Assembly (NCBI GenBank): GCA_039815375.1
Contig: JBCBZJ010000001.1
Coordinates: 128,001-192,000, forward strand
From: Verrucomicrobiota bacterium
Lineage (GTDB): Bacteria > Verrucomicrobiota > Verrucomicrobiia > Opitutales > Coraliomargaritaceae
DNA: 64,000 bases
Direction of reading: 5' to 3'
Shown here: positions 23,958 through 45,929 of the stretch, one piece after another
Numbering within the stretch: position 1 is the stretch's first letter
How the letters are laid out: each line of letters opens with the position of its first letter
Notes under the pieces: model-generated
The model's input: only the letters and a program-made list of their open reading frames with translations
Databases searched by the model: none
Told to the model about the DNA's origin: nothing
Made by a program: the position numbers and the translations under genes

Positions 23958-24434
23958 CTACCTATTGAGATCTTTGCGAAGTGGTGCCGAACCCAGGGCC
24001 TTCGTGCCATCGGGCTTTTCGATCTCGATCCACCACTTTGCGCCCTCCGGCAAGGGATTCGGTGCCATCATGTGGATATCATAGCTATTTTGTTTGCTGG
24101 CGTAAGTTCCTTTCCCGACGGATGATAAAGTGCGATCCTCGCTTCCAATCCACGCACGCACGACCGATCCACCGTTGTCACGATAGGGTAATTTGACGAC
24201 CAGATGTCCTTCCTCGCCGGCTTGAACCATGCCGTGTGCCTGGGTCACTTCAGCGTAGATTCCAGAGATGTTGAAGACACCAAGCCTGAAACGTTCGCCG
24301 TGGTCGTGGCCGCCGCCACTTGGTGATGGCCCATGATGGTCGTGCCCGTGGTGGCCATGGTCATGTTCAGAGCCGCATCCGGAGAAGAATGTGACGAGCG
24401 TTAAAGCCGCGATGAGTTGAGTCAGGTTTTTCAT
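23958..24434 (-). CDS. His-rich lipoprotein at the end of the RND operon
   Basis: Lipobox FSGC followed by EHDHGHHGHDHH...GHDHG; overlaps the RND gene stop. Confidence 0.75.
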   Translation of the reverse strand: MKNLTQLIAALTLVTFFSGCGSEHDHGHHGHDHHGPSPSGGGHDHGERFRLGVFNISGIYAEVTQAHGMVQAGEEGHLVVKLPYRDNGGSVVRAWIGSEDRTLSSVGKGTYASKQNSYDIHMMAPNPLPEGAKWWIEIEKPDGTKALGSAPLRKDLNR

Positions 24435-28926: not shown

Positions 28927-28939
28927 CGAAAACGAATGT

Positions 28940-30334
28940 TTAAAATTCTCTGAACCGATCAGTAGGTCCCTGGAGATGGCGGATTTCATTGTTCAACTCC
29001 GATTCCTCGGCCTGGAGTTGGATCAAGCGTAGCTTGGCCTGGTGTGAGCGGATCACACCGTCCATTAGAAGTGTTACGCTGCCTTCACCTATTTCCAGTA
29101 ACTGCTTGGATCTTGCGAGTTGGCGGTCTACCTTCGGAACGAGTTGCTCTTTGAGGATTTGTTGCTGCTCAAGGAGCGCATTACGACGCGCTAGTAGGTT
29201 GAAGAGCTGCCCGGAAAGGTGCTCCAACTCAGCCTCATAGGCAGATCGGGCAACATCCCGTTTGGCCTCTGCTTCAGCGATGTCGGCTTTGTTTCGATTC
29301 AGTAGGGGCAGGCCAATCGCACTGATTGCCCCCCAGCTCGAATCACCCTCATCGGATTCGTATTGCGGGCCGATTTTAAGATCGGGATATTGCTTTCGGA
29401 TTTCTTCTTTCAGCCTCAGTTCTGCAATGGAATACTCTGTAGCCAGCCGCTCGAGCGTGAGGTTATCTTCTGCGAATGTTCCGGTGACCTCGGATTTGTC
29501 CAGATTGATGCGTGGCACCAAATTGACCGAAGCTTTCGGCTGTAGCCCCAATAGGGCCTTGATCCGTTGCTCGCCTTGCTCCAGTTCACCTTGGAGGCGG
29601 GCAATTTCCATGCGGTGACTGGTCGATTCGATGGAGAAGAGGCCTGCTTCGATTTCCCTGATTTCGCCGCTTTCAAGCAAAGCGGTTTGTGACTCGACGA
29701 TCGATTCAAGCACTCGAGCGGTTCTCTCCGATTCTTCCATTTCGAGCTGGAGCGCAGACCACTTAACCCATGCGTTACGGAGTTGAAGGCTAACGTTCCA
29801 TTCGGATTCGGCAACATGGATCAAGGCGGCCGTATGCTCTGCGTCGGCACGCTTCTTCTCAATTTCAAGGCGACCCGAAATCGGGACTGTAAATGAAAGT
29901 GCTGAGCTCAAAGTCCACGGATTGGGAATGCTTTCCGTGATTCTAAGCAGATTGATATTGAACTCTGGATCTTCCCAGAGGCCTGCATTTTCACTGCTGG
30001 CTTCAGCGATGCCTGCCTTCAATCGTTCCAGTCGAAGACTGGTATTGTAGATGAGTGAGATGAGTTCCCCTTCCTCCAGATCCAATCCGTCCGTGAGATC
30101 GAACTGCACGGGGCCGTGCTGCGTTTTCTGCAATCGGTTAACAAAATTACGGACCGCTTCAGTATCGGCACTACGGGCCTCCCATTCCGAGATGTGTTTG
30201 GATGCATCAAGTGGCTCGGGTTCAAACGACTGGCAGCCCGAAATGAGGATTGAGGTGCTCACTGCGAGAAGCAACTGAGCTTTAGGAAATGCTGAATGAC
30301 TACTATTGAAACATATCATGATTGGTCTGAGCAC
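28940..30334 (-). CDS. TolC/CzcC-family outer membrane factor
   Basis: Lipobox ISGC, two OEP repeats (YPDLKIGPQY...LPLLNRN). Start may be ATG 30319. Confidence 0.85.
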   Translation of the reverse strand: MLRPIMICFNSSHSAFPKAQLLLAVSTSILISGCQSFEPEPLDASKHISEWEARSADTEAVRNFVNRLQKTQHGPVQFDLTDGLDLEEGELISLIYNTSLRLERLKAGIAEASSENAGLWEDPEFNINLLRITESIPNPWTLSSALSFTVPISGRLEIEKKRADAEHTAALIHVAESEWNVSLQLRNAWVKWSALQLEMEESERTARVLESIVESQTALLESGEIREIEAGLFSIESTSHRMEIARLQGELEQGEQRIKALLGLQPKASVNLVPRINLDKSEVTGTFAEDNLTLERLATEYSIAELRLKEEIRKQYPDLKIGPQYESDEGDSSWGAISAIGLPLLNRNKADIAEAEAKRDVARSAYEAELEHLSGQLFNLLARRNALLEQQQILKEQLVPKVDRQLARSKQLLEIGEGSVTLLMDGVIRSHQAKLRLIQLQAEESELNNEIRHLQGPTDRFREF

Positions 30335-30434
30335 AGCGGACGAACCACTTGAGCACGTGAATGAATCACCCCCAGCGAGGAGCGACGTTCAAGGGATTTC
30401 CGGCAAGAACGATGCCGGAAGACACGCGTGAGCC

Positions 30435-30911
30435 TCAGACCAATTGAGGCGGCTTAATTAAATCGAAGCAGGGCCCTTCAGGGCACTTGGCGGATGTGAT
30501 TGGGGCATGGCATCCTGAAATGCGGCACGCTTTAATGGAAACGGTGTAAGCAGGATGGAGGCACACCATGTCGACACTCAGTGTCACGATGTGAGCATGA
30601 CAGCCATTGGATTTGTCATCGGTAGACTCTTCGTTTTCAGTTCCACCATGATCACAGCCGAATCCTGCGTAGGTTTGCTTATGATGATGGGATTGAGTGG
30701 AACCGGAGTGTGAGCTGTGGCTGGCTCCGTGAGCATGCTCATGAGAGTGGGATTGAGGCGCGTGCGTCGAGTCTCCGCTGTGGCAATACTCGATCTCGAA
30801 ATTTGCCTGGGCACCCAATACCTGAGTCGTCGCAACCAAAAGCGACAAGACGAGGAGCATCGTCCGTTGAACGATGCTCGGCTCAGCACTCTCTTTCTTG
30901 GTATACTTCAA
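30435..30911 (-). CDS. His/Cys-rich exported hypothetical protein upstream of the efflux operon
   Basis: Hydrophobic N-terminal segment, HSHEHAHGASHSSHSGSTQSHHH, several Cys, C-terminal KPP. Confidence 0.6.
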   Translation of the reverse strand: MKYTKKESAEPSIVQRTMLLVLSLLVATTQVLGAQANFEIEYCHSGDSTHAPQSHSHEHAHGASHSSHSGSTQSHHHKQTYAGFGCDHGGTENEESTDDKSNGCHAHIVTLSVDMVCLHPAYTVSIKACRISGCHAPITSAKCPEGPCFDLIKPPQLV

Positions 30912-30965: not shown

Positions 30966-33218
30966 TTATTCCTCCGGTTCGGTAGCTCCTGCTTCAGACG
31001 CTGGACCGTCCTGAGAAATAGGTCCGTAGCGCTCCTGCAAGAGAGCATTGATCGTCTCTTTCGGCGCGTTTTTCTCCGACACGCTCGGGACAATGATATC
31101 GGCTTCCTCAAAGACCCCGAGATTACCGCTATCCAATCTACCTTTGGGATGCATCGACTTCTGATCGATAAAGTCATTCGCGACTTTTTCGCTGAACACT
31201 CCGTTTGCCGGATTCGAGATAATGGTCGGGCGAACCAGCAGAATGAGTTCACTTCGACTGAGCGCAGTTCCCTGGTTGCGGAATGCGCGTCCAACGACGG
31301 GAAGATCACCAAGCACCGGTATCTGGGAGCGCTGGTCCTCAATCGACTCTTGTATTAGACCGCCAATGGCAAAAGTCCGGTTGTTCGCAGCGACAAAAGT
31401 TCCACTGACACTTTGCGAGGCAACAATATCGATGGAGATTTCTGTAAGTTCACCTGTACCGACAATGTTACCCAGAATATCGGCACCATCCCGAACGATT
31501 TGCGACTCTTCCTGGAGAAGTCTGAGTTCAACGGTATCATCATCATTGATGTTAGCGGTAATGAGGATGGTTGAGCCGACATCCTCTTGCTCATACTCCG
31601 GCGTAACAAAATTAACCGTGTTACCTGAGTCAGTGACGACCGTTGTGCTTTCGCTGAACCCGGTGAGCACCGGCACTTGCTCTCCAATGAAAATCCGGCT
31701 CACTTCGTTGTTAGCTGTCATGAGCGATGGCTGGCCGAGAACGGTGAGCTTACCCTTGCTCTGGAGGAAGTTCAGATTGGCAGTTACATCGTTGCCGACG
31801 TATTGGAAAAACAGATCGCCGGTCAGGGCGTTTGCAGGGTTGAATCCACTACCTGTGAATTCGCCTGCGTCATTCAATATCCAGTTCAGTCCGGTATCCA
31901 GACCATCGTCGAGATCAATCCTGAGCACTCGAATTTCGAGAAAGACGAGCTGAACGGGTTGGTCGAGCTCTTCCACAAGGGTCGTGATCTCATCCATGGT
32001 CCTTTGATCCCGGGTGCGGACAAGAAGTTTGTTTAAACGATCGATTAGCGAAACGAAGATATCTGCTTTCGAATCCCGAGCTGCTTCGAGCAGAGCGGTG
32101 TCGATAAATTCAAGGCTGAGGATATCTTCTTCACTCAACTCGCGGCTTTCCTGCGTCCCGGAGGATTGTCCTCCTCCGCTGTTCGAACTGTTGGAGCGGC
32201 TTCTCAGGGAAGAAGACAAACGGTTTGAAACGGAGTTCGAACCTCCGCTTCCTCCCCCCTGGCCTTGCTCACCAATACCTTGTCCGCGGTCTGCGATAAT
32301 ATCGAAACGATCCAGTCGCTGTTGTAAATCGTCGGATAGGAACTCCCCTGGCTCTTCGCTCTCATCGATGCGTTCAGAGAGTCTTACCCGATCACCAAAA
32401 AGATCACGAATCGTCAGGGCAATATCTCTCGCATTGGGAAATCGCAGCGTGAATACCTTGCTACGCTCCTCTTGAAAATTGGTCGATCCTCGAGCGAATT
32501 CTTCAACGGTTTGCAGGCGAGTGATATCAGATTCGCCAACTGAACTTGGATAGAGTTGATGGGTAAGGGTGAGCGTTTCAACAATCTCCTCAGTCGTTGC
32601 ACTTGGGAGGAAGAGCGTAACATCTATCTCACGCGCTTGACTGGAAACGGCGATTCGATCCTTCGTCACGTAGGACAGAGCCTGGGCAGCCACGGCAAGA
32701 GGGATTGCGTTGAATTCAACAAACGCGACTTCATCGTCCACACCAACATCTTGAAGCACTACACCTCTCCAGATGAGGTTTTCTCCTGTGCGGTTGTCGC
32801 GCAGGGCAATCTTATTCGCATTGATCTGCTCTGCCGTGTAATCGAAATCCTTGGTCCGAATCGTCTGCCCTTCGACAGCAAGAAAGTATTCATCGCGAAA
32901 ATTAAGGATGACGACTCCCGAGCCCATGGATGGATGTCTGGAGAAGACCATGCCTGAGATTCTCACATCAGCTTCGTTTCTCGCAGAGTTCTGTTCCGGT
33001 CCCGAACCGGCCGCACGACGAAGCGCGGCTACGGCGTCTGCGGTCTGTTGGTTCAGACTTGTTGGATCCGAGACGTTTTCCTGTGCGCCGAGTTGAAGAG
33101 ACGACAAACCGAAGCTAAGCAAAAGAGAAAGGCTGAGAAGACAGAGTTGAGTCATCCCTGAATATCTGGTGGTGCGACTCGTTCTGTTGAGCTGATGGAG
33201 TGAATACTGATTGTTCAT
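30966..33218 (-). CDS. Secretin (GspD/PilQ family)
   Basis: Signal peptide, N0/N3-like domains, VFLEIRVL, GQPSLMTANNE, IGEQVP, IGGLI, IPVLGDLPVVGRAFR, ELILLVRPTII. Start approximate. Confidence 0.9.
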   Translation of the reverse strand: MNNQYSLHQLNRTSRTTRYSGMTQLCLLSLSLLLSFGLSSLQLGAQENVSDPTSLNQQTADAVAALRRAAGSGPEQNSARNEADVRISGMVFSRHPSMGSGVVILNFRDEYFLAVEGQTIRTKDFDYTAEQINANKIALRDNRTGENLIWRGVVLQDVGVDDEVAFVEFNAIPLAVAAQALSYVTKDRIAVSSQAREIDVTLFLPSATTEEIVETLTLTHQLYPSSVGESDITRLQTVEEFARGSTNFQEERSKVFTLRFPNARDIALTIRDLFGDRVRLSERIDESEEPGEFLSDDLQQRLDRFDIIADRGQGIGEQGQGGGSGGSNSVSNRLSSSLRSRSNSSNSGGGQSSGTQESRELSEEDILSLEFIDTALLEAARDSKADIFVSLIDRLNKLLVRTRDQRTMDEITTLVEELDQPVQLVFLEIRVLRIDLDDGLDTGLNWILNDAGEFTGSGFNPANALTGDLFFQYVGNDVTANLNFLQSKGKLTVLGQPSLMTANNEVSRIFIGEQVPVLTGFSESTTVVTDSGNTVNFVTPEYEQEDVGSTILITANINDDDTVELRLLQEESQIVRDGADILGNIVGTGELTEISIDIVASQSVSGTFVAANNRTFAIGGLIQESIEDQRSQIPVLGDLPVVGRAFRNQGTALSRSELILLVRPTIISNPANGVFSEKVANDFIDQKSMHPKGRLDSGNLGVFEEADIIVPSVSEKNAPKETINALLQERYGPISQDGPASEAGATEPEE

Positions 33219-33231
33219 AGAAATAAAAGAG

Positions 33232-34461
33232 TTAGGCGGCGCCATAGAGCGCGAGGAAGAAGGCGAGGTAGACATAGAAAACGATGCCACCGGCAACGAG
33301 AATGACAGCGGGCACCATGACTGCACTTAGCTTTCCAATGAGGGCCTGCAGGCGCTCTTCATGGAAGTCGGCGACGTTGACCAACGTCTCTTCAAGATTT
33401 CCGGAGGATTCGCCGACACCTACCATTTTGATCATCATCGGTGTGTAGGCATTACCTCTTCCAAGGCTCTCGGCGAGTGTTCCACCCTCCAGCACCCGGT
33501 TGCGGGCGGAGTCGACCACTGCGGCAAAGTAACGGTTTCCATGTATCGTCGAGAGGATTCTTAAGCCCTCAACAAGGCGGATGCCACTTTCCAGCAAAGT
33601 TGCCAGAGCACGGGCGAATAGAGCCGTTCCTCCACTCCTCAGAATTGTTCCAACAAGCGGCACACGGATCAAAAACCGGTCTATAGCCAGGCGGCCAGGG
33701 GGCCAAAATAAGGCAAAAATGAAGGTCATCATCAAAATTGCCAGGACCGCTGCAATTCCAGGGCCGTAGGTTACAATAAAGTTTGATAGATCGAGCAAAG
33801 ACTGAGTCAGCGGTGGAAGCGGGCGACCGAGTGCCTCAAGCGCCTCTCGTAGTAACGGGATGACGTAAACAACCATGTAGGCGCTGAGTCCGAATGCGAA
33901 GAGCACAACCACTGAGGGATAGGCCAGTGCCGACAAAATGGCGTTTCGGTTCTTCCGAAATCGTTCCATCGACTCGGCGGAGCGCCGCATTACTACATCG
34001 AGGTTACCACTTTCTTCCCCGAGTCCGATCATTGAGACAACCGATTTTGGAAAGATCCTGTGCTCATCGATTGCGTCTGCAAGCGAGCTGCCACTCTCCA
34101 CTCGTTCGCGGATTTTGATATACAATCTACGAGTCGCTTTAGATGGCGGCATTTCAATAACGGTCTCGATTGCCGCCAGAAGGCTCAGTCCACTCTTGAT
34201 CATGATCGAGAGCTGTCTGAGCGTTAACTCGATATGGATCGACTTGGCACGACCGAAATTCTCCGGGTTGAATATTTTGGAGACAAAGTCCTTCTCCGCG
34301 CTCAGGGCGTCGCGCTGTGCCGCGGTGGCTTGCTGCAGCTGTTCAGGAATCATTCCCTGCTCCGTAAGCATCCACCGAGCGGCACTGATGCTTTCCGCCT
34401 GGATGATCCCCTGGCGCCGTTCTCCGTTCTGGAGTCGGGAAGTGTAGAAGAAATCGCTCAT
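33232..34461 (-). CDS. Inner-membrane platform protein (PilC/GspF family)
   Basis: RQLSIMIKSGL, GEESGNL, ALAYP, LPPLT, second GESSGNL repeat. Confidence 0.92.
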   Translation of the reverse strand: MSDFFYTSRLQNGERRQGIIQAESISAARWMLTEQGMIPEQLQQATAAQRDALSAEKDFVSKIFNPENFGRAKSIHIELTLRQLSIMIKSGLSLLAAIETVIEMPPSKATRRLYIKIRERVESGSSLADAIDEHRIFPKSVVSMIGLGEESGNLDVVMRRSAESMERFRKNRNAILSALAYPSVVVLFAFGLSAYMVVYVIPLLREALEALGRPLPPLTQSLLDLSNFIVTYGPGIAAVLAILMMTFIFALFWPPGRLAIDRFLIRVPLVGTILRSGGTALFARALATLLESGIRLVEGLRILSTIHGNRYFAAVVDSARNRVLEGGTLAESLGRGNAYTPMMIKMVGVGESSGNLEETLVNVADFHEERLQALIGKLSAVMVPAVILVAGGIVFYVYLAFFLALYGAA

Positions 34462-34462
34462 T

Positions 34463-36037
34463 CTATAGGAACTCTGAAGTTGCCCGAACCACTTCTTCTA
34501 CCGTAGTCTCACCACTCCGTATTCTGGCGAGACCGTTCGCAACCAGTGATAAGTTACCATCCGAGTCTCTTTTTTCGACAAGCATTTGCTCGATTGACTC
34601 GGCGCTTGACGCATCACCGATCAGTCGCGACTCGTCCATCCCAAACGGCAGTACTTCGAATAGACCGGATCTACCGATAAATCCTCGGCCGGCACAATGG
34701 ATACATTGTCCAGCGGTCCACGATGGCTCACCTTCCATTTCTGGACGGCGCAGCAACATGGCCTCTTGCTCAGTAATACTGCCCTTTATCCGACATTTTG
34801 GGCACAGCACGCGGACGAGCCTCTGTGCGGCCACCAATCGTAAGACACTTGCGATGAGAAAGCGATCTACGCCGAGGTCGAGCAATCGAGTGATCGCACC
34901 GGCCGCAGTGTTCGTATGAAGGGTGCTGAGAACAAGGTGACCCGTAAGTGCAGCTCGAACTGCCAGTTCAGCTGTTTCGCGGTCGCGAATCTCACCAAGC
35001 ATGACCACGTCAGGGTCATGCCGCAGTATACTTCTGAGAGACGAGGCGAAAGAGACCTTCTCGCGTCGTGCATCGACTTCGGTTTGGGTCGCACCGTCGA
35101 TCTCGTATTCGATAGGGTCCTCAACGGTCATCACGTTCGCAGTGGTTTGCCCTAAAAGATGCTGAATCGCGGCATAGAGTGTGGTGCTCTTACCACTACC
35201 GGTTGGACCCGTGATAAGAATCATTCCATGGGGCAGATTTACCGCGCGTGAAAACTGCTTACGGTGCTCTTCGGTGAAGCCGAGGCTGTCGAGCGTCAGG
35301 TCAGAATTTTCCGACATTAAGATACGGAGTGTGATTCGCTCGCCATGCCTTGCCGGAATCGTAGCCATACGGATTTCGGCTCGCGGGAGCACCCCTCCGG
35401 GGTCAAATGCGAAAGAGCCATCTTGAGAAGCGCGTTTCTCTGAGATATCCAAGCCACCCAAGACCTTGAGGCGGTTAAACAATGGCAATCTAAGGTTGGC
35501 CGGCAGCGTTAGATCGTCGGATAAAACCCCGTCGATGCGCAGTCGCACCTGGACTTCCCCGTCTCGCAGTACATTAAAGTGCAGGTCTGAAGCCCTTCGT
35601 ATCAGTCCGGTTTTCAGAAGCTGGTCACATATTGTAGTGGCTTCCTCGGAGTTGCCATCGCGCGTATCAACCCGGGTTGCCGAAGCGTCAATTACCGGTC
35701 TATCCTGAGTGCTTGCGTTGCGAAGATTTCCGAAGAGCCGAGTTTGCAGAGAGCGGATCGACTCGACTGTCGCCACAACCGGAACAGGTTTTAGTCCTGT
35801 GATCCTTTGAAGTAGCTTTGCAGACGCCGGATCGAGAGCCTTATCGACGGCAACCTTGAGTTCGCCATCCAATTCGACCAACGGTAGGAGGCGTCTTCGA
35901 ATCATCAGGCTGGGGGGGATTTGAAGTGCCCAGCGTGGATCGAATTTGATTTCTTCCAGATCCAAAGCTTCCGTCTCATCGAGGACCGCGCTTCGAGGGG
36001 CACTTTGACTGGCGCTATCTGGTTTTTGAATGGGCAT
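34463..36037 (-). CDS. Assembly ATPase (PilB/GspE family)
   Basis: ASDLH, RIDGVL, GPTGSGKSTT, TVEDPIEY, LRHDPD, GEIRD, LTGHLV, Zn motif CPKC...CIHC. Confidence 0.93.
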   Translation of the reverse strand: MPIQKPDSASQSAPRSAVLDETEALDLEEIKFDPRWALQIPPSLMIRRRLLPLVELDGELKVAVDKALDPASAKLLQRITGLKPVPVVATVESIRSLQTRLFGNLRNASTQDRPVIDASATRVDTRDGNSEEATTICDQLLKTGLIRRASDLHFNVLRDGEVQVRLRIDGVLSDDLTLPANLRLPLFNRLKVLGGLDISEKRASQDGSFAFDPGGVLPRAEIRMATIPARHGERITLRILMSENSDLTLDSLGFTEEHRKQFSRAVNLPHGMILITGPTGSGKSTTLYAAIQHLLGQTTANVMTVEDPIEYEIDGATQTEVDARREKVSFASSLRSILRHDPDVVMLGEIRDRETAELAVRAALTGHLVLSTLHTNTAAGAITRLLDLGVDRFLIASVLRLVAAQRLVRVLCPKCRIKGSITEQEAMLLRRPEMEGEPSWTAGQCIHCAGRGFIGRSGLFEVLPFGMDESRLIGDASSAESIEQMLVEKRDSDGNLSLVANGLARIRSGETTVEEVVRATSEFL

Positions 36038-36079
36038 CGGTTAACTGGATTTTTTATACAATGGAAGGTCCCGAAGCTT

Positions 36080-37231
36080 TTAGATCGATCGCGCAAGTGG
36101 GCGTAGTTCTCGAGTGAGACGTTGCTCAAGTATTTTTGGATTCTTGGTGCAAGCGAGGGCCGTTGAGCGTTGTAACAAGCCCTGTTGCACCCAATCGACA
36201 AGGCATTGTTCGAGGGTCTGCATGCCGTATTTTGCCCCGGTCTCCATGAAGGAGTAGAGGTTTTGGAACTGCCCTCGGGCGATCAGATTGGCAGCAGCAG
36301 GAGTGACTTGCAGGATCTCACTCAAGGCGACTCGCGGTCGCTTGAACCGACCACGAGCCGGTTTCTCTGCTCGCGGTCCATCGGAAGGCACGAGGTGCTG
36401 GGTCAAGACGCCGCGCAGATTCATGCTCAACTGGCGGAGAATGCCTGGCTGCTCATCTGCAGGGAAGACTGAAGCCAGACGCTGGATCGCTCCTGCACAG
36501 TCCGGAGCATGGACCGTAGTAAAGACAAGGTGACCTGTTTCTGCGGCAGTCAGGGCGGTCCGGATCGTTTCACGCTCCCGAACCTCACCGACGAGTATGA
36601 CATCCGGGTCTTGCCGTAGACTCGAGATCAATGCTTCGTGGAAGTTGGATGCATGGGTTCCAATCTGGCGCTGATCGATTCGTGATTTCTGCGAAAGGTG
36701 GAGATATTCAACAGGGTCTTCGATTGTGATGATGTGTGCCGCACGCTCGCGATTGATTTTATCCAATAGGGTCGCGAGTGTTGTGCTTTTGCCGGAACCT
36801 GTTGGTCCGGCTACGACAACGAGTCCATCTGTAAGTTGACACCAGTTTTCCAGAGAGCCGGGAAGACCAAGTTCCTCGAGACTTCGAAAACGGTCGTCCA
36901 GCTTACGAATAGCGATCGAGAGGCCGGGTAAACGCTTGTAGATATTGAAGCGAAAACGCCCATCCTCAGAGAGGCTTATTGCGCCGTCAAGAGAGCCTGT
37001 TTCAGGAATAACGCCACATGCCTCTGTCGCAGTCAGCTCCTCAACAAGCATACCAAGCTGATCCCCGGATAAAGGCTGCGGAAAGCGCTCCACCGTGGAC
37101 AGCACCCCATCAATGCGGAAAAGCGGTGCGTGCTCGGGAGCAAGGTGCAGGTCCGATCCTGCTACATCAATCAATGTCTGGAGGAGCCCTTCCAGACTGG
37201 GTTGCTTCAAGCTGTATGGAGTATTATCCAT
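36080..37231 (-). CDS. pilT: Retraction ATPase (PilT family)
   Basis: SDLHL, GPTGSGKSTT, HIITIEDPVEY, LRQDPD, AAETGHLVF, AAANLIARG (AIRNLIRE-like), GMQTL. Confidence 0.9.
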   Translation of the reverse strand: MDNTPYSLKQPSLEGLLQTLIDVAGSDLHLAPEHAPLFRIDGVLSTVERFPQPLSGDQLGMLVEELTATEACGVIPETGSLDGAISLSEDGRFRFNIYKRLPGLSIAIRKLDDRFRSLEELGLPGSLENWCQLTDGLVVVAGPTGSGKSTTLATLLDKINRERAAHIITIEDPVEYLHLSQKSRIDQRQIGTHASNFHEALISSLRQDPDVILVGEVRERETIRTALTAAETGHLVFTTVHAPDCAGAIQRLASVFPADEQPGILRQLSMNLRGVLTQHLVPSDGPRAEKPARGRFKRPRVALSEILQVTPAAANLIARGQFQNLYSFMETGAKYGMQTLEQCLVDWVQQGLLQRSTALACTKNPKILEQRLTRELRPLARSI

Positions 37232-37797
37232 TATCTGTAAATCCAGAGGTTCCAGAGCCGAAGGTCCGTTTTTATTTCGTAGCGCGCAGTCATGTTCACT
37301 GCAATGGGTGCAAGAGGGAGTTCCGTGCCGCCGAGCTCATCGAGAAAAGCAGTGACGCTTGAATAATCGGCTGCGAGCTCAACTTCCCAGAGTTTCCCAC
37401 CTCGGCTTCTTTTGAGGATTTTATTAAAGCTTCGGACATCCCCGGCCGCGGCGGGCGTCTCACTGATCACGATGATTCCGTGCTTCTGCAACAGCGTTTC
37501 AAAAAAAGCTTCGATCTTTAAGGATACCTCAGGCGAGTTACCTCCAGTGGGGGCCTCACCGCTCGATTGTGCCTCCTGTAAGACAGCTAGTTCAGACTTA
37601 AGGGTGGAGAGTTCACGGCGCACTGCGAACAGTTTGGCATTTTCCGGAAGGCGTCCTTCTAAAACTCCGGCTTGCCGGCTCAATTCATCGATTGATTCAA
37701 ACCTTGGCTTTGCTAAAAAGAAAATATGAATGAAGAAGAGAATCGCTGTAGGTAGCGCCATCAACATGATACGATCTCGTTTACTCATCTTGTTCAT
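37231..37797 (-). CDS. PilO/GspM-like alignment protein
   Basis: MSKRDR-TM-coiled coil, then LAADYSSVTAFLDEL ferredoxin-like motif; position in operon. Confidence 0.6.
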   Translation of the reverse strand: MNKMSKRDRIMLMALPTAILFFIHIFFLAKPRFESIDELSRQAGVLEGRLPENAKLFAVRRELSTLKSELAVLQEAQSSGEAPTGGNSPEVSLKIEAFFETLLQKHGIIVISETPAAAGDVRSFNKILKRSRGGKLWEVELAADYSSVTAFLDELGGTELPLAPIAVNMTARYEIKTDLRLWNLWIYR

Positions 37798-39197
37798 TGC
37801 GAAGCCCCCCTTCTAGTTACTGCCAGCGGAGCACCCGATTCTTTCATAGGTGTGAGATCAATCGTGAATGTCCACGGTCCGCCATTATCGTTGACAAAAG
37901 ATGCTTCCCGCCCGGTTAGCGTTGCCCACCATCCTGATTTGGAAAAGTCTCCATTCAGTTGCCGAACATACTCGGCCGGCGCTTGCGCCGTCGAAGCGAC
38001 CCCTGAGATCGATATGATAGATTCTTTACTTTGAATGCTTTGGATAACCACTTCCTGATTAGATGCATTTGCTATTGCAGGTAGAAGCGTCGCCATTCGT
38101 TCTTTATGGGTGCTCAAATCGAATGATTCGTCGACGGTGCCCTCTCGAAGGCGCGCTAGCTGGCGCTCCAATTGTTGAATTTGGTTCCTTCCATCACGGA
38201 CTTCATTGACTGATTGGCGCATTGAGGTGACATCTTCCTGCAGTTGATTGCGAGTCGAGTTCAGGTAGGACAGATGGCCCGCAATCAAAATGACGGTAAG
38301 TGCGGTGATTCCTGCCACTCGTAACCCGAGCTGCTTATTCGTCATTTCAGGCTTCGGGATGCCCAGTCGAGGGATCTTCTCGAGTTTTTTACTCAGTGGA
38401 TCGAGCCCTTTTGCTACTTCTTGAGCCCATTTGAGGCGCCCTGCATCGCTATCCAGTCGAATTTGAGCCACATCTCGAAACACATTTGGAGCAGAACCTT
38501 CCGAGGCGACGATAACGAGCTCATCCCGTTCATATGATTCAATTACAGCGGGATCCGAGAAGGCAGCTTCCTCATTCTCAGTCCAGCCTCGCACATTACG
38601 GCGCTCTGAGGAACTCGCTTCGTAGACGATAAAGCGCGGCCATATCTCGAGTTGTGCAGGCGAGTCCACCGGGATTCCTGCAGGATGAAAAATTGCAGCA
38701 AGGTGGCATCCACCAACAGCGTTCACTGCATTTCGCCAAATCATCAGCTGAGAGAAAGACGATTGAGCGACCCATGCGCGGAGCATTCCCTCCTGCCCAG
38801 GCAGTGGCTTCCAGGTCCATTGGGATTCCTCAACCCCGAGCCCAGTCAGTGCCTCAAGCTCGAGAGCGATTGCCTCGTCTTTCGATTCGTCTCCAAGAAA
38901 AGGAATTTCAAGAACAGCGGAGCTTACCTGAACGCTAAGTAATTTGATTTCCCGAGCGGGTCGCGGCTTCGTCTGAAGAAGTCGCGTGATCCAAGCGCCG
39001 TCGTCCTCTGCAAGTGAATCCCCGTAGATATCATCGAAGGAATCGATTTCTGCACTATCGGTAGAGGCTTCTTTATCGTTGATGACACGAATAACGTCGA
39101 AGCCTCCGGTGCTTTGCGCGAGATCAATGCGAAAGCATGTTGAGCCGGTATCGATCAGAACTGTTTTAGACGGGCGTTTGGAAAGTGATTCGAGCAT
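37794..39197 (-). CDS. Fused PilM/PilN-like (GspL-like) alignment protein
   Basis: Large cytoplasmic N-domain, single TM, coiled coil, PilN-like ISISGVA...YVRQL...FTI. Confidence 0.55.
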   Translation of the reverse strand: MLESLSKRPSKTVLIDTGSTCFRIDLAQSTGGFDVIRVINDKEASTDSAEIDSFDDIYGDSLAEDDGAWITRLLQTKPRPAREIKLLSVQVSSAVLEIPFLGDESKDEAIALELEALTGLGVEESQWTWKPLPGQEGMLRAWVAQSSFSQLMIWRNAVNAVGGCHLAAIFHPAGIPVDSPAQLEIWPRFIVYEASSSERRNVRGWTENEEAAFSDPAVIESYERDELVIVASEGSAPNVFRDVAQIRLDSDAGRLKWAQEVAKGLDPLSKKLEKIPRLGIPKPEMTNKQLGLRVAGITALTVILIAGHLSYLNSTRNQLQEDVTSMRQSVNEVRDGRNQIQQLERQLARLREGTVDESFDLSTHKERMATLLPAIANASNQEVVIQSIQSKESIISISGVASTAQAPAEYVRQLNGDFSKSGWWATLTGREASFVNDNGGPWTFTIDLTPMKESGAPLAVTRRGASQ

Positions 39198-39198
39198 G

Positions 39199-40218
39199 TC
39201 AAAAGTTTCTTAGAGTCAGAGTTACCGGGTCTGTCCGACCCTCAAGCGTAACGTTTGTCGCCGGAGAAATACGCTCTGTCGCAGTAGCCGATACTGCAGT
39301 CAAGTCTTCTTCATTTCCCGGAACGGGGCCGTCAATTTGGTAGGCACGAAAAACCTTAGGTCCGAAAGGTAAATCTGCGAGCGTTAGCGTCACCGAAATG
39401 ACAGAGGAGGGCGTTCCCGGGTTATCGACCGGATCGTCGAATTCGAACTTTGCTTGCTGAATTGTAACAACTCCTCCCGTTCCGTCTGCTGCATAGCTTG
39501 GCCCGTAGACGCGGGCGAGGAGTACGTTTCCTCTCCCGTCACTGAAATTCTGCGAATTCGGTCGGACTAGAGTCACAACGATATCCTCAGTCGAACTCTG
39601 CTCGGACGCAGATAGTCCAGCTAAGACCGCATTCGAATCTGCTTCAAACACTGCAGCCGTATCGGCATTCACTCCGTCACCTCCAGTCATCTGATCGACT
39701 CCCAGGCTCTGAATGATGGCGATCGTTTCGCCGTCTGCGGATGGATCACCGTCGGCTTCAAAAAAGAGAAAATCCTTTCCGTAACCGTCGACCAGCTCGC
39801 TTTGACCAAATCCAAGATCAAGGTAAGGCCCGCGCCAACCGCCTCCCAGGCGGACTTCGCTGTCTCCTGGCGGTGTTTGAATAGAATATGAGGGGAGACT
39901 TTCAATCTTCCAAAGTTCGGAGGGCTGTAAAGGCATCATCGATCCGGGATCGACTGCAACAGGAAGGCGCCCGATATCACCGATGAAGCCTGTTATGCTA
40001 TTTTCGCCGAGAACTGCCGATTCAATCGATTCAATCTGCGTGAGGTTCGCTTCGAATCGGGTTTCTTCGGTGAGCTGCGCGACACTTCGAAGAGCGATGG
40101 TAGAAACGACCGCAAGGATAGTGAGCACCACGAGTAACTCCACGAGGGTTAGGCCGCTGCGGGAAAATTCAACCGCTAATGGACGCTGATAAATGCTGAT
40201 GTTACTTACAGTGGACAT
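39199..40218 (-). CDS. Type IV prepilin, GspG-like core with C-terminal extension
   Basis: RSG|LTLVELLVV class III signal; GDIGRLP, WRGPYL, DGYG, SLGVD. Confidence 0.85.
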   Translation of the reverse strand: MSTVSNISIYQRPLAVEFSRSGLTLVELLVVLTILAVVSTIALRSVAQLTEETRFEANLTQIESIESAVLGENSITGFIGDIGRLPVAVDPGSMMPLQPSELWKIESLPSYSIQTPPGDSEVRLGGGWRGPYLDLGFGQSELVDGYGKDFLFFEADGDPSADGETIAIIQSLGVDQMTGGDGVNADTAAVFEADSNAVLAGLSASEQSSTEDIVVTLVRPNSQNFSDGRGNVLLARVYGPSYAADGTGGVVTIQQAKFEFDDPVDNPGTPSSVISVTLTLADLPFGPKVFRAYQIDGPVPGNEEDLTAVSATATERISPATNVTLEGRTDPVTLTLRNF

Positions 40219-40302
40219 TCTCAGCGTCTCGTGTGTTTGCGAAAAAATTGGGCGCTGAATTCTGAGTCGGTCCGTGTTCATTAGTGGTAAACTCAACAAG
40301 TG

Positions 40303-40935
40303 TTAGAGTCGTGGATCGACGGATCGAAGGAATCGCACGAGGTCGTCGCCACCAGCATCCATCGCATCATTCGGGTCCATCTCGAGGATACGGTTAGGCC
40401 CCGCAGAGACAAGGCGGGCATCGGTGGTGTCGGGCTCCTGTAAAACGATGGGTTTACCCCAGGCGTCGAGAACGGCCGGGTCATCTTCGATTCCGGTAAG
40501 GTCGGTGTTGTCGTCGAAACCATCACCCGATTCGATGAAGTTTCCATAACGGGCGATGTTCGAAATTAAGTAAGGTCCGTTCCAGCCGTTGCCGGTCGCT
40601 AAATTGAATGAAGGCTCGCCGTCTACATTTTCAAAGAGGCCCACGATGCGACTGGGGAGCGAAAGGGTGTGCGTGAAATAACCGGGATTCTCGGGATCAC
40701 CGAGCAGTGCTTTTTCCACTTCCCGGAAGCTGGCTCGCGTTGCGATCTCTTGTGCGGTGAGTGACTCGCCTGTTCCATCGGCAACTTTGATGCCGCTCGA
40801 AATCGTTGCGATCACAATACTACCGATAGCTCCAAGAATGCCCAGAACGACCAAAAGCTCCACTAGAGTGAAGCCTGGACGGGGCTGCGCATCTCGCGCA
40901 AAAAATCGTCGGTCGGTTCGCACTGCTTTGGACAA
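40303..40935 (-). CDS. Type IV prepilin, GspG-like
   Basis: RPG|FTLVELLVV; WNGPYL, DAWG, SAGPN, GDD. Confidence 0.87.
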   Translation of the reverse strand: MSKAVRTDRRFFARDAQPRPGFTLVELLVVLGILGAIGSIVIATISSGIKVADGTGESLTAQEIATRASFREVEKALLGDPENPGYFTHTLSLPSRIVGLFENVDGEPSFNLATGNGWNGPYLISNIARYGNFIESGDGFDDNTDLTGIEDDPAVLDAWGKPIVLQEPDTTDARLVSAGPNRILEMDPNDAMDAGGDDLVRFLRSVDPRL

Positions 40936-40943
40936 GCCCGAGA

Positions 40944-41729
40944 TTAGAACGACTCGTAGAATCCGTCCAAATGATAATTGACTCCACGAAGCTGACTATC
41001 CTCTAGACCAGCAACAGTAGCCAGACGAACTGTTTCATCGTCGAAGATCGTGAAAATTACGACCCATCGAGCATATTGTGTCGTTGGATTCTCACCACCA
41101 CGCAAAAATTTAACCGGTGCATCAGCCATGGTTCGTCCGACCATGGAATTGTTCTGACCGAGACCGAATGCAGCGTAAGCCACAACCTCTCCAGAACCAC
41201 CGTTGACCTGACTCGCGGTCAATCCTAAGCGATCCTCTCCGTCATCAGTGAGAACGACGATCGTCGCGGGGAGCTCATTCACCTCGGGGTCCGTAATTCC
41301 GTCAAAGGTCTGGTTGACCGTAGTGTCGGCGAAATCAGTGTGCTGTAGAGATTCAATAATGCCCGCATTGAGTAACGCATTATCGATGATCGTTTCGTTT
41401 GCAGTGGATGGAGTCAGATCATCGAGTTCGTCAAGGTCGGGGTCGTCAGTTGCGCCTGCATCTGTCCCTGTTGGTAAAACGTCACCTCCCGCATCAATCA
41501 AGCTGTCCCAGCTATTTGGGTAGGCCCCTGTTTCGGTGCGGAATGTTTCAACAACCTTTACGACCTCACGCATGTTTGCCGAGCCGCTCGAACTGTTGGA
41601 AAGCTGGTTGGTATCTGGAAGAATTGGAATGATGATCGAAGCGACTGCTATGAGAATCGTAAGAACGACCAGCAATTCGACTAAAGTGAGCCCCTGACGT
41701 TTCGAGCGTGGTTTGTTTTTTCGGTTCAT
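40944..41729 (-). CDS. Large acidic type IV prepilin (pilin 2)
   Basis: KRQG|LTLVELLVV class III signal; paralogous to 41819..42628. Confidence 0.87.
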   Translation of the reverse strand: MNRKNKPRSKRQGLTLVELLVVLTILIAVASIIIPILPDTNQLSNSSSGSANMREVVKVVETFRTETGAYPNSWDSLIDAGGDVLPTGTDAGATDDPDLDELDDLTPSTANETIIDNALLNAGIIESLQHTDFADTTVNQTFDGITDPEVNELPATIVVLTDDGEDRLGLTASQVNGGSGEVVAYAAFGLGQNNSMVGRTMADAPVKFLRGGENPTTQYARWVVIFTIFDDETVRLATVAGLEDSQLRGVNYHLDGFYESF

Positions 41730-41752
41730 AAGTCGGCTTTCTAAATGGGAAA

Positions 41753-41782
41753 AGACGCGTCGGGGCAATGCCCGACGCGTCT
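41753..41782 (-). terminator. Hairpin terminator/attenuator after the first pilin
   Basis: AGACGCGTCGGG-N6-CCCGACGCGTCT perfect 12-bp stem with a short T run on the minus strand. Confidence 0.7.
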
Positions 41783-41818
41783 AAACTCTGGAATATCTAT
41801 ACTTCCCTTAAGTAAGAA

Positions 41819-42628
41819 TTACTGTCCGGCAACTTCCGTCCAGTAAACTTCGATGTGGTTGTCACCGGTTTCGAAACCATCACCGTCAATGCAGTAGCTT
41901 GTGCGTTTGAATTCAGCACGCTCGAGAGGGTCTCCGCTCTCGTCTGCAACCTGCACGATGATACCGAATCGGGAGTGCACTTCATCAGGAAGAACGCCGG
42001 CTGTGTCACCGAAGTGAACCGGTGGTTCTGGAGTGAGGTCTCCAAGAAGCGTCCAGTCACGGCCAATGCCGAACCAAACATACTTTTCAGAAGTAGTCGG
42101 GACAGATGCACCGCCACCGCCATTCGGTAGGAAAATTGCATCTGCTTGATCATCCGTAAGTGTGATGACAGTTGAATCACCTGAGAGTGCACGTGATGTT
42201 GCGCCGATATTAAAGGTGACATTGAAGTCGGTCGCTGCGCTGTCATGGTCGACAACGGTAGTGATGCCGACCGCAGCAAGAGCGGCAACCTCATCAACTG
42301 ACAGGTCAGATACGGACAATTCTCCGGCCCCTTCCGTTGTGAAGGTAGCGTTCGCATCATTGACAGGAACGTCGCCACCAGTGTGGATGCCGGAGTCGAA
42401 GACGTCGCCGAATTCACCAAACTCAAGCTGCACACGTTGCATCATCTGGTGCACTTCCGGGAAAGTGGTCGCACAAGTCGAGACGTGGCTACGAGTCAAA
42501 GCGTCTTTGATAGTCGGAACAAGCAAGCTACCTGTAGCGATCAGAATAACGAGCACAACAAGGAGCTCGATGAGAGTTAGTCCTGCCTTCTTGGAAAGGC
42601 GGCGCATTTCTGTATATGTGTTTTTCAT
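41819..42628 (-). CDS. Large acidic type IV prepilin (pilin 1, probable major pilin)
   Basis: KKAG|LTLIELLVV class III signal; first gene of the operon, followed by a hairpin. Confidence 0.88.
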   Translation of the reverse strand: MKNTYTEMRRLSKKAGLTLIELLVVLVILIATGSLLVPTIKDALTRSHVSTCATTFPEVHQMMQRVQLEFGEFGDVFDSGIHTGGDVPVNDANATFTTEGAGELSVSDLSVDEVAALAAVGITTVVDHDSAATDFNVTFNIGATSRALSGDSTVITLTDDQADAIFLPNGGGGASVPTTSEKYVWFGIGRDWTLLGDLTPEPPVHFGDTAGVLPDEVHSRFGIIVQVADESGDPLERAEFKRTSYCIDGDGFETGDNHIEVYWTEVAGQ

Positions 42629-42654
42629 GTGTCTATTTTATCTTTCGAATCTTA

Positions 42655-42677
42655 AATATGAGAATGAATCTCATATT
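42655..42677. promoter_or_regulatory. Fur-box-like inverted repeat upstream of the pilin operon
   Basis: AATATGAGA-ATGAA-TCTCATATT; core TGAGAAT-G-AATCTCA is one mismatch from the Fur 7-1-7 variant TGAGAATnATTCTCA. Confidence 0.65.
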
Positions 42678-43045
42678 CAGAATAGGACTTAATGCATCTA
42701 ACTTTCAACAGATAAATTACAGGTTTTTTTGAAAAAACTTTTTTGAAAGTTCACTTACGATTTCTATAAGCTGGGCTAATTCGAAAAAATTCTTCCATTA
42801 ACTTAATTTTAAATACGTTATAATTTTGGTATTGAAGGACTTCAGCTTTTTGAAGCACTTCGACATTTCCCTCTTGCTGCCGCCGAGTTGCTCTTGGGCA
42901 ATCTGCTTTGACAAGCTCAGTATAGGTCAGGATTTTTCCTTATATCTGGTTATTGGCACGTTAGAGTCGATACTCCCGCCCTAAACTCTATGCGAGCAGT
43001 GTTCATTGCGCACGTAATCCGGTCGCAGTTTCATGCTTTTATGCT

Positions 43046-45214
43046 TCAATTTGTAGAGCGTTTTAACGCATCGGAAGAGAGAGCATTGAGCTGGTTGATC
43101 AAATTCCGGTCTTCCGGGTGATGAATCAATCCCTCCTGGATGATTTGCTCGGCTCTTTCGTGATCGCTTGCATCGGTAGTAAGTTGAGCTCGCTCGAGAA
43201 ATATATCTGACTCGGCGTGCTGAATCGCCTCTGAATAGTTCGCAAGGAAACGTTCCGCTCTTCCAGGATCGTTGACTTTCTGCGAGAGCTTTGCAGCCAG
43301 AATTGCCGCCTTTCGATCATCCGGTGTGATTTCGAGTATTCGTGCATACACTTCGATCGCGTCCTCATAATATTCCAGATTGACGAGTGCCGAGCCGATT
43401 ACCCAATTGTTACGATAGACGTGCGGTTGGATGGAGTAATACTGAAGACTATGAAACAAAGCTTCCTTGTGTTCGCCCTGCATCGCTAAAATCTCAGCCA
43501 GTTTCACCCGCGCAAATAATAAAGTTGGATATCGGGAAAGGGCAGATCGAGCGACATTCTCAGCCTCCTGGATATCCCCATCGTTCAGCGCAGGGAAAAA
43601 GTTCTGATAGAAGATTCTGTCGGCTCGAATCTCGGCGATCACGCGTGAGCCGAATAAAAGGAAACCGAGCAAGACGAAGACTGTTGAGATAAGCGCAAGC
43701 AAACGTGCGGGCCGCCAACTTAGGTTAACGGAGATTTGGTAACGCTCTAGCCAACCGGCTCCAGAAAAAATGATTCCGAGACAAGAAAGGAAGACAAATT
43801 GGTGACCGGTAAAAAAGAGAGGTGCACTGAAGAGCGCAACGGTCGCCAAAACGAGTAGGGGTAAGAAAGCGGCCAAGGCAGGGGGAATCCCTCCTGTCGA
43901 GTTATTTTCTTTTTTGAACAGAAGTCGGCCTGTTGCAGCAAGTAGAATCACAAAGATCGCGGACATACCCAGGATGCCGGGAATCCCAAGCTCAATGCTT
44001 ATCTCAAGGTAGTCATTATGTAGGAAATAAAGTATCTTCTCCTTCATGTTGAGTCCTTCTTCATCAATGGCCCGGGACTATGGAGGCCACTCCGCTCTGA
44101 AATTACCCTCTCCTACGCCAAGAGGAAGCGCATCCAGAAACATGATCCATCCATTCCTGAGGAAGGAAATTCGTGTTCGAGCAGAGCCTCCGAAAATTTC
44201 CTGACCGGCCTCCTCGAAACTTCCTTCGCTTTCGACTGCGAATGTTTTGCCCAGTGTCTTGGAAATATTGTCCCACTGGAGTTCAAAGCCCCGCGGCGTC
44301 AGATTGATAAGAATCAGGAATGCCAGAATACTGACAGCTCCAACTGTGAGTTTGCCTCGGTGGCTGTTCAGTTTGAAAGCAGCAACGTGTTTCCTGATTA
44401 TAATAAAACCGACCAGAACAAGACTGGAGAGTATGGTTGCAATCCACACATTCCTCGAAAAAGAAGCATAGGCCCCAAGGGAGCTGATTACCGCAAAAAA
44501 CGCCCAGATGGTTGATGTTAACGACGTTCTACTGATCGAGAAGAAATAGAGAGCAAGCGAAACTCCAACCGCCGATATTTGGCCTGCGAAGTTTTTGTTG
44601 ACGAGGAAACCGGCGGGTGGGGCCACTTGGTTGGCAGGGGCTGCATCGAACCAATATTGAAACAAAACAACTGCCGCGTTCAAAATACAGCCAATCGCCA
44701 TCGCACCGATGAGAAATTGTGTTTCCCGTGGGGTCGGCCTCTGAAGGCATATCAAGAGAAAACCCAAAACTGGAAACGCCCATCTCGACCAGTCATACAG
44801 AACGAGATGCGGACTGTTTGCAAAAAAGACTGTTGCGAGGCTGTAGAGTGCTAATAGAAGAACCGGAACTGCGGTGAGTGGAATTTTTAAACTAATCTTC
44901 CTGTTGTCATTCTTAAAGGAAGTATAGGTCCTGATCAGGGCTGCGGTACAAGCAAAAGCGACGATTGAAGAGATAAAAAGTGCTTTGGGAAGTCGGCTGG
45001 CGCCACTCATCCCATCAAGGTAGATTATGGGCCAAATCGCCAAGCCCATTGCTAGTATATAAAAGGAGAGCCTCAAGTTGGAAAAAGGAGAGTTGATAAC
45101 GCGGAGTCGTACATTGAGTAGATCGGCTATCACGATTTTGGTGATCGAGCCGAGCCTAAACGTGTTAAGTGTAAAGACCCCGGGCTGATTCTCGAAACGG
45201 CACCAGCTCACCAA
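43046..45214 (-). pseudogene. O-antigen ligase/oligosaccharyltransferase (Wzy_C) plus TPR gene interrupted by one in-frame TAG (44078-44080)
   Basis: 5' ORF has NKNF, SFSRNVW, R and GVGEGNF; 3' ORF has LHNDYLEISIELGIPG and TPRs. Both are in the same frame: ...TGG CCT CCA TAG TCC CGG GCC ATT GAT GAA GAA GGA CTC AAC ATG.... Start uncertain. Confidence 0.8.
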
Positions 45215-45417: not shown

Positions 45418-45924
45418 CTACAGCTCTGCTAAGCGCTCAAAAGCGACCGGGAAAACCTCCTGAGAGTTGCCGGGGCTGGTCAGAGCGGTGAGTGTCCCGT
45501 CTTTCACTTCGAAGGCTTGGAACTGTGGTGTCCCTCCGTCGATCTTGGTAAGCCATGGTTTCTTATCAATGACCTCGGGGCTGATGGCAGGCCAATCAAA
45601 GGCCGTCTCCCGGAGATAGTCAGCCCGCGCGCGCGGGCTCTGATCGACGCTGTAGGTAATGAACTCAAGGTTCTTGGACTTCTTGATAAGATCTTCGTAG
45701 GCGGATGACAGGGCAGCGCTGACCTGCTTGCAGGGCGCGCACCAGGATGCGGTGTAGTAAAAGATGACAACTCTGGTTTCTTCCTGAGGGCTGAGAGGAT
45801 TCAGCGTGAATCGATTTGCTTCGACCAATTCGGGCAGGGGGAGGGTGGTGCCCTTCTCAAACGCATCGGCACGGCTCGCCATAAGGGCGATCACGAGGAA
45901 GAGTGAAGAACGTGCAAAGTGCAT
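45418..45924 (-). CDS. Exported thioredoxin-like protein
   Basis: Signal peptide; YTASWCAPCK. Confidence 0.85.
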   Translation of the reverse strand: MHFARSSLFLVIALMASRADAFEKGTTLPLPELVEANRFTLNPLSPQEETRVVIFYYTASWCAPCKQVSAALSSAYEDLIKKSKNLEFITYSVDQSPRARADYLRETAFDWPAISPEVIDKKPWLTKIDGGTPQFQAFEVKDGTLTALTSPGNSQEVFPVAFERLAEL

Positions 45925-45929
45925 GTATC

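Follow-up and report, generated by a model that had tools for sequence, protein, structure and literature searches.

The window analysed here is a stretch of 64,000 nucleotides from a Verrucomicrobiota bacterium, and its minus strand carries, from position 42628 to 30966, ten co-oriented genes that run from four N-methyl prepilins through to a secretin. An earlier note on this DNA had described four prepilins, a fused PilM/N-like protein, a PilO-like protein, PilT, PilB, PilC and a secretin; all are present, co-oriented and in that order. The operon and its associated elements are as follows.

41819..42628, minus strand: pilin 1 (p1), prepilin of a family without a name
40944..41768, minus strand: pilin 2 (p2), paralogue of p1; likely start ATG at 41729
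40303..40935, minus strand: pilin 3 (p3), GspG-like motifs only, no extra domain
39199..40299, minus strand: pilin 4 (p4), GspG/EpsG-like head and C-terminal β-sandwich in the predicted model
37794..39197, minus strand: PilM-PilN fusion of GspL-type architecture (weak PilN match; look-alikes in the Atlas)
37231..37797, minus strand: PilO/GspM-like bitopic protein (position, size, topology; syntenic in relatives)
36080..37231, minus strand: PilT-family ATPase (curated profile, motifs, own subclade)
34463..36037, minus strand: PilB/GspE-family assembly ATPase (profiles; own clade)
33232..34461, minus strand: PilC/GspF platform protein (profiles; own clade)
30966..33326, minus strand: secretin with an apparently fused GspC/PilP-like domain, residues 83-185 (profiles, connector profile)
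42679..42708, minus strand: sigma-70-like promoter (-35/-10, 18-nt spacer; consensus match)
42656..42678, no strand assigned: Fur-type operator palindrome, directly downstream of the -10 (motif searches)
41753..41782, minus strand: hairpin of 12 bp after p1, then a short U-run (z = -5.5)

The hallmarks of the type IV filament superfamily are therefore found together, namely an assembly ATPase, a platform protein, class III prepilins and a secretin, with the prepilin peptidase (A24) encoded elsewhere, as a single gene on contig C14. Judged from sequence, the operon is a complete gene cluster of a type IV filament machine. The host assembly is 99.9% complete and elsewhere carries other secretin, PilB, PilT and PilC genes, as well as 16 further prepilin-like open reading frames (ORFs), and the operon is thus an extra machine.

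The machine and its lineage

In what follows, profile scores are given as observed/curated cut-off, in bits. PilT, whose Walker A, Asp-box and His-box motifs are intact, is alone among the machine proteins in passing its curated cut-off (TIGR01420, 351/319). The top-scoring models for the secretin, assembly ATPase and platform protein are GspD (159/351), GspE (413/630) and GspF (281/424), none of which reaches its cut-off. The PilB (391/676) and PilQ (76/284) profiles are likewise below theirs, the MshL and ComG profiles far below, and archaeal BasE gives a weak match only. Matches to the GspH, GspI, GspJ and GspK profiles are confined to the N-terminal helix, and no such set was recognised. 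The fusion of PilM and PilN, a protein of 467 residues, is backed by a weak PilN match and by PilM, PilN and GspL look-alikes in the Atlas. The PilO-like protein has no family match in the profile scans.

In many relatives a small gene lies between pilC and the secretin gene. A profile was built from 28 of these pilC-secretin gaps. In a set of 11 sequences it matches the window's secretin at residues 83-185 (E 3e-4), and it also matches XcpP (E = 4e-5), so that the connector reads as a GspC/PilP equivalent which in the window is fused to the secretin N-terminus. The Pfam model T2SSC weakly matches one of the eight connector members tested (E = 0.0014).

A PilT scan of species genomes found about 30 loci with the same gene set, in Verrucomicrobia, Planctomycetes, Kiritimatiellae and one Myxococcota genome. 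Full-length matches to the p1/p2 family occur in at least 27 of 350 Planctomycetota genomes and at least 5 of 300 genomes of the window's class, both being lower bounds with 7-8 candidates scored per genome; strong p4 matches were found in 3 of 400 genomes of the phylum. Named strains with homologues are Rubellicoccus peritrichatus (P0027, P0267), Rubritalea profundi (L033) and Planctomycetales 10988 (L018). As far as the genome sequences tell, the system is sporadic across bacteria of the Planctomycetes-Verrucomicrobia-Chlamydiae (PVC) group and is present in dozens of genomes. The genes are usually arranged as p1/p2 (one to several copies), p3, p4, M-N, O, T, B, C, connector and secretin, with local rearrangements. 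In many planctomycete operons (L012, L014, L016, L030, L077, L309, L317) a gene of 400-490 codons lies 3' of the secretin gene, with tetratricopeptide repeats (TPR) where scanned; its product is possibly a pilotin-like or chaperone partner.

Trees were calculated under LG+G4 without a mixture model, mostly by quick searches. The few named references were drawn from annotated records and comprised three proteobacterial type II secretion systems (T2SS), a few PilB proteins, HofQ as the sole PilQ-type secretin, ComGA and ComGB, with no mannose-sensitive haemagglutinin (MSHA) or Tad proteins. In the first PilB tree, 27 of the 28 family rows form one clade (Shimodaira-Hasegawa-like approximate likelihood ratio test, SH-aLRT, 97), the Myxococcota locus L028 falling outside. 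A larger tree places 50 rows in one clade (99), and a careful tree 10 rows (98/97). The family PilT proteins form one clade (7 rows, SH-aLRT 97), the PilC proteins a clade of 25 rows (92, or 95 with L028), and the secretins a clade of 23 rows plus L028 (100). The earlier note had seen in this operon a chimera of a type IVa pilus (T4aP) and a T2SS. A chimera would scatter the four core proteins, whereas PilB, PilT, PilC and secretin each fall in their own, congruent clade. The chimera is therefore not supported, and the core proteins very probably represent a separate, co-inherited lineage with mixed features. A union of the family PilB with T2SS is not rejected (approximately unbiased test, AU, p = 0.33); one with the eight PilB references is (p = 0.014), although this test is weak since T4aP is itself paraphyletic.

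The mixture of features is seen most clearly by comparison with known systems. Resemblances to the T2SS (Gsp/Xcp) are the GspG-like fold of p4, the motifs of p3, the GspL-like fusion, the GspC-like connector, the single operon, and the secretin, ATPase and platform proteins that score highest to Gsp profiles. By contrast, most operons here contain PilT, while the T2SS has no dedicated retraction ATPase; no GspH/I/J/K set was recognised; the likely major pilin, of 250 residues, is unlike GspG; and the core proteins lie outside the clade of the three Gsp references and pass no curated Gsp cut-off. A GspG-type pseudopilin is thus present, but GspD, GspE and GspF orthologues are not, as judged by cut-offs and clades. 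Resemblances to T4aP are the PilT, the PilB, PilC, secretin and M/N/O/P equivalents, and the prepilins with Gly-1 and Glu5. Unlike T4aP, the present system has one compact operon, a fused M-N, GspG-like pilins, a p1 head with no match among solved PilA structures, a PilB that lies apart from the PilB references, and Leu as first mature residue in three of the pilins. A T4aP-type PilT is therefore present, but PilB, PilC and PilQ orthologues are not, going by the PilB and PilQ scores and the separate PilB clade. In Sulfolobus, an archaeal type IV filament machine assembles the bindosome from substrate-capturing, sugar-binding proteins; the present system shares the idea only, homology being limited to the ATPase superfamily.

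Denise et al. (2019; PMC6668835) left 884 type IV filament systems as 'generic' and report that PilT is frequently lost, for example in the T2SS. The present system would probably fall into their generic class or be mislabelled. The words 'Verrucomicrobia' and 'iron' do not occur in the main text of that paper, and the searchable part of its supplements contains no PVC names, although a listed member is possible. No description of this filament lineage was found in the literature searched, most subscription journals lying outside it.

The pilins

Pilins p1 and p2, about 31% identical to each other, belong to one family, which comprises 461 clusters at 50% identity (E <= 1e-30). Its sole Pfam model is N_methyl, that is, the N-terminal motif, and its members are labelled in databases as 'type II secretion system protein' or 'prepilin-type domain protein'. 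The pilins had been described as acidic and His-rich, which is overstated. There are many His in p1 only (7, 2, 1 and 0 in p1 to p4), and Asp plus Glu amount to 14-16% of the mature pilins compared to 11-21% in the head domains of the genome's other prepilins. Lys plus Arg are low in the operon's pilins; the acidity itself is within the range of the genome.

The conserved residues of p1 (mature numbering) are His32, Glu42, Tyr167, Glu185, His189, Arg204 and His242, the three His being 94-98% conserved among 120 near homologues. The predicted structure is confident (predicted local distance difference test, pLDDT, 92.3). It has no Foldseek match at E <= 0.001, a missing match being no proof of a different fold, and no fold match by VIA. 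Its best Z score is 3.4, with EpsG and PulG at 3.1, and its sole structural neighbour in the Atlas above a template modelling (TM) score of 0.5 is a mostly planctomycete cluster without a name. A PDB sequence search with p1 matched nothing beyond the N-terminal helix region. The p1 head is thus confidently predicted and, going by the model, has no close solved fold. Direct metal binding by p1 is less likely than not.

The GspG motifs pointed out in the earlier note (WxGPY, DxWG, SxGxD) are present, but are confined to p3 and p4. The sequence profile scores of both for GspG are far below the cut-off, and a BLAST alignment of p3 with XcpT is limited to the N-terminal helix. In the p4 model (pLDDT 93.3), residues 26-168 match EpsG with a Z of 8.9 (root mean square deviation 2.9, 102 residues aligned), and the C-terminal β-sandwich resembles pilotins and Bacteroidetes fimbrial proteins (Z about 8). 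On this model, p4 is likely to be a tip or minor pilin.

Hairpins follow p1/p2-family genes at 22 of 30 loci, and follow p3 or p4 at one of 30 each. The hairpin after p1 is likely to act as a partial terminator or mRNA stabiliser. Extra stand-alone copies of the p1 family with their own boxes are found at L310, L316 and L321. Because p1 comes first after the promoter, is followed by hairpins and has extra boxed copies, its family is likely to provide the major subunit.

The probable operator and the metal-gene neighbours

The palindrome sits right after the -10 of the promoter, which is itself a consensus match only (2 found compared to 1.2 expected in shuffles). It is the best motif site in the window, at 12.6 bits, and one of four sites in the genome with at most three mismatches from the Fur consensus. 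A symmetric motif search in the upstream regions of 16 relatives, with the window left out, converged on the same motif, a TTGAGA-n-T-n-A-n-TCTCAA-type palindrome (score 215, compared to 174-201 in four shuffled sets). A scoring matrix was then built from the sites of eight relatives. It reaches 10 bits or more at 6 of the 31 family pilins held out and at 0 of 26 other prepilins, many of the genes so tested not being first in their operon. Scores of at least 15 bits occur at 21 of the 59 family loci, or at 13 of 51 when the training loci are set aside; at three of these (L020, L033 and L114) the box is at a neighbouring gene. On the PilB tree the box is gained or lost 10 times, and it is thus spread beyond one subclade.

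In the window's own genome there are 19 sites of at least 14 bits in 3.56 Mb, of which the identity of the intergenic matches alone is informative. These precede TonB receptors (by BLAST) and, with labels read from sequence, FecI/FecR, haem ATP-binding cassette (ABC), Fe3+ ABC, TroA-type ABC and PepSY genes. In five planctomycete genomes, selected because their boxes are strong, there are 23 occurrences of the pattern compared to one for the control. Ten of these sites are at pilin loci, and 7 of the 13 others precede Fe3+-type ABC (SBP_bac_6), FeoB, PepSY_TM (3), TonB receptor or ferritin genes, all Pfam-confirmed. The set of FeoB, Fe3+ ABC, PepSY, TonB receptor and ferritin is typical of a Fur regulon. 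The motif of the earlier note's Fur-box-like palindrome has been recovered de novo from relatives, and recurs at held-out loci and at iron-type genes elsewhere; it is a 7-1-7 palindrome that overlaps the promoter and is shared with iron-uptake genes. Taken together, the motif searches make Fur-type control in this genome quite probable. The binder could possibly be another member of the Fur family, such as a Zur-like paralogue, because the box also precedes ZnuA/TroA-type genes and the genome has three Fur-family genes.

It could be argued that existing models already cover the operon, as an ordinary though divergent T4aP or T2SS locus, and that the window's palindrome is a chance match. The reference set was small (three proteobacterial T2SS, few PilB, only HofQ, no MSHA), and the window's site alone is not significant genome-wide. 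Against this stand the four congruent separate clades, the failure to pass any curated PilB, PilC, PilQ or Gsp cut-off, the position of the palindrome directly after the -10, and the recurrence of its motif at the corresponding gene of distant relatives. We consider this explanation very improbable.

Several operons have metal-related genes beside or inside them. At L306, genes for a haem ABC transporter and a monooxygenase separate the pilin genes; at L331, FeoB-HemS is directly upstream of the operon; at L114, Fe-ABC, flavodoxin, HemS and Fur genes are upstream; at L194, CobW and Fur genes are inserted between pilO and pilT. Other loci are flanked by CobW, ZnuA, ZIP or TonB genes. Overall, metal genes are found within 4 kb at 15 of 59 family loci; the figure is 3 of 47 for canonical pilT loci, and 2% for stretches drawn at random from the window's genome. 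The 15 include eight self-hits (loci that supplied the query) and L120, which may be just a GTPase match, and kin loci are not independent.

The flanks of the operon in the window are a different matter. At 23958-30911 on the minus strand, directly after the secretin, is a CusC/B/A-like resistance-nodulation-division (RND) pump between two His-rich genes of 158 codons, and at 45418-48245 on the minus strand a TonB-dependent receptor gene, then a thioredoxin-like gene. Between the palindrome and the receptor lies one further gene:

43046..45214, minus strand: O-antigen-ligase/oligosaccharyltransferase (OTase)-like gene with a TPR tail, likely one gene; flanking only

A His-rich gene and RND genes also follow the secretin in the nearest relatives, L001 and L027, and RND genes are nearby in L015 and L320. 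The position between a metal pump and a TonB receptor had been offered as support for a role in iron, for which it is weak evidence: the RND pump follows only in the nearest relatives, and no Fur-type box was found upstream of the window's TonB receptor. The OTase-like gene beyond the palindrome is indeed present, but has no homologue at any relative locus examined. RND pump, TonB receptor and OTase were accordingly rejected as conserved parts of the system. In the sequence as printed, one TAG (44078-44080) divides the OTase-like gene into two in-frame ORFs. A single base, at 44078, differs in the contig of the run that is probably the source of this DNA (one run), which has a Tyr codon there, and for this reason we read the gene as likely to be one OTase-TPR gene of 722 codons with an assembly error; a pseudogene or read-through was rejected on the same grounds.

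It is worth adding some observations made at boxed and box-less loci. A doubly boxed locus of the window's genome (C62:189559-200238) encodes a TonB receptor, an ABC transporter, an AraC regulator and a PEP-CTERM-type protein; from its gene content it reads as a haem-uptake locus, with the PEP-CTERM-type protein as a candidate surface haemophore. Kelch-repeat proteins, candidate substrates or partners, adjoin the operon or sit behind the same box at L018, L020, L316 and L361. The box-less, CobW-linked loci L024, L194, L213 and L220 have a small ORF upstream of p1 that ends in a Cys-containing motif, and also share a conserved GC-rich hairpin-like element before p1. Upstream of 840 at L021, two short inverted repeats lie between a second prepilin gene and a divergently oriented neighbour that we take to be MntR/DtxR-like. 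At L183, on a Paracoccus plasmid, DUF4198 and ABC substrate-binding genes are interspersed among those of a canonical T2SS cluster, which may be a further secretion locus linked to metals.

Proposed function

On the basis of these observations, we hypothesise that the operon encodes a self-contained filament of its own lineage, which is induced by iron starvation through the Fur-type operator and whose retractable p1 fibre brings iron sources to uptake systems. We put the probability of this at a little under one half (roughly 0.47). Iron-loaded Fur would repress the promoter, and iron starvation would lift the repression. The p1 pilin would then outnumber the downstream products because of the hairpin that follows its gene. 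The single prepilin peptidase of the genome would mature the pilins, p3 and p4 would prime the fibre, and p1 would polymerise on this primer. PilB would extend the fibre through the secretin and PilT would retract it. The fibre would adhere to iron-bearing particles or ligands, possibly through the conserved His, Glu and Tyr of p1, and so deliver iron sources near to the co-regulated TonB, ABC and Feo transporters. In its most specific form, the proposal would make the system an iron-fishing branch, possibly a T2SS sister with a kept retraction motor, whose p1 head is an undescribed fold with a His/Glu/Tyr metal site; it would catch particulate or haem iron away from the cell and pull it back to the TonB, ABC and Feo transporters of particle-dwelling PVC bacteria. 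This form we regard as unlikely.

A number of results weigh against the proposal, beyond the limits already given with the counts. With regard to control, score distributions over all held-out pilins are alike for family and other prepilins (Mann-Whitney p = 0.18), the genome-wide site count is no richer than in shuffles (61 compared to 56-57), the window's own site is moderate, and a search of 26 box-less loci gave no second (Zur- or MntR-like) motif. The synteny with Fur boxes or iron genes that the earlier note expected in PVC genomes holds for 32 of the 59 loci, which have a box or a metal gene, but 27, some of them on truncated contigs, have neither a metal gene nor a box of at least 15 bits. 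With regard to p1, its three conserved His drop to 72, 67 and 49% (His32, His189, His242) in distant members, p2 lacks two of them (His32 and His189), and the p1/p2 hairpin count is favoured because hairpins are commoner in intergenic than in coding DNA. PilT, finally, is missing from five contiguous operons (L309, L315, L319, L325, L327), a loss that amounts to three changes on the PilB tree, and two of the PilT-less operons carry the box; the five genomes hold PilT homologues of 34-42% identity. Retraction is plausible in the window's operon, given the intact PilT motifs, yet in view of these five operons would not be universal.

A secretion machine would account equally well for the GspL-type fusion, the GspC-like connector and the GspD-like secretin. 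Such a T2SS-like system, serving in iron starvation, would use a short endopilus made of p3/p4 or p1 to push iron-scavenging proteins through the secretin, the cargo being haem-binding, PEP-CTERM, Kelch or TPR proteins, and PilT would be an optional resetting motor. The EpsG-like fold of p4, the best scores to GspD, GspE and GspF, the T2SSC and XcpP matches, the sister position to T2SS that the AU test does not reject, the repeated loss of PilT and the PEP-CTERM-type protein in the boxed haem locus are all in keeping with this. However, PilT is kept in most operons, in its own clade, no GspH/I/J/K set was recognised, and no conserved substrate gene adjoins the operon, the TPR gene after the secretin being found at some loci only. 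In addition, the pilin that is likely the abundant subunit has 250 residues and does not resemble GspG (Z about 3), and genomes carry further copies of it elsewhere. Secretion is therefore, in our view, a serious competitor but on the unlikely side.

Alternatively, low iron may be merely a cue for a pilus that serves adhesion, aggregation or surface motility without a part in iron capture. Fur-repressed pilin genes have been described in other bacteria (PMC13170364), the C-terminal domain of p4 resembles adhesin as well as pilotin β-sandwiches, and many loci lack any metal link. This would leave unexplained why, in subclades that are unrelated (L306, L194, L331, L329), uptake genes are inserted into the operon or share its orientation, and a conventional pilB/pilT/pilC set already exists elsewhere in the genome. 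We consider a mere cue improbable.

Known roles of type IV filaments are in motility, adhesion, DNA uptake and secretion. Few links to iron have been described, and these concern general-purpose pili (PMC13170364): the type IV pilins PilA1 of Synechocystis (PMC4144903) and PilA2 of Legionella (PMC13170364) are reported to help growth on scarce or mineral iron. Those are pilins of general-purpose T4aP with a second role, while the filament proposed here is a whole extra machine with its own pilin family in an iron regulon. The comparative evidence points to a conserved type IV filament variant, not previously described in the literature searched, that is likely to be iron-regulated; its function can be argued from context as above. 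If the proposal is correct, a whole extra machine in the iron regulon across several phyla would constitute a nutrient-acquisition branch of type IV filaments, and would offer particle-dwelling Planctomycetes and Verrucomicrobia a route to mineral or haem iron. The combination of a GspG-like pilin, GspL/GspC-type connectors and a PilT that is kept yet repeatedly lost provides a test case for the origin of secretion machines from retractile pili.

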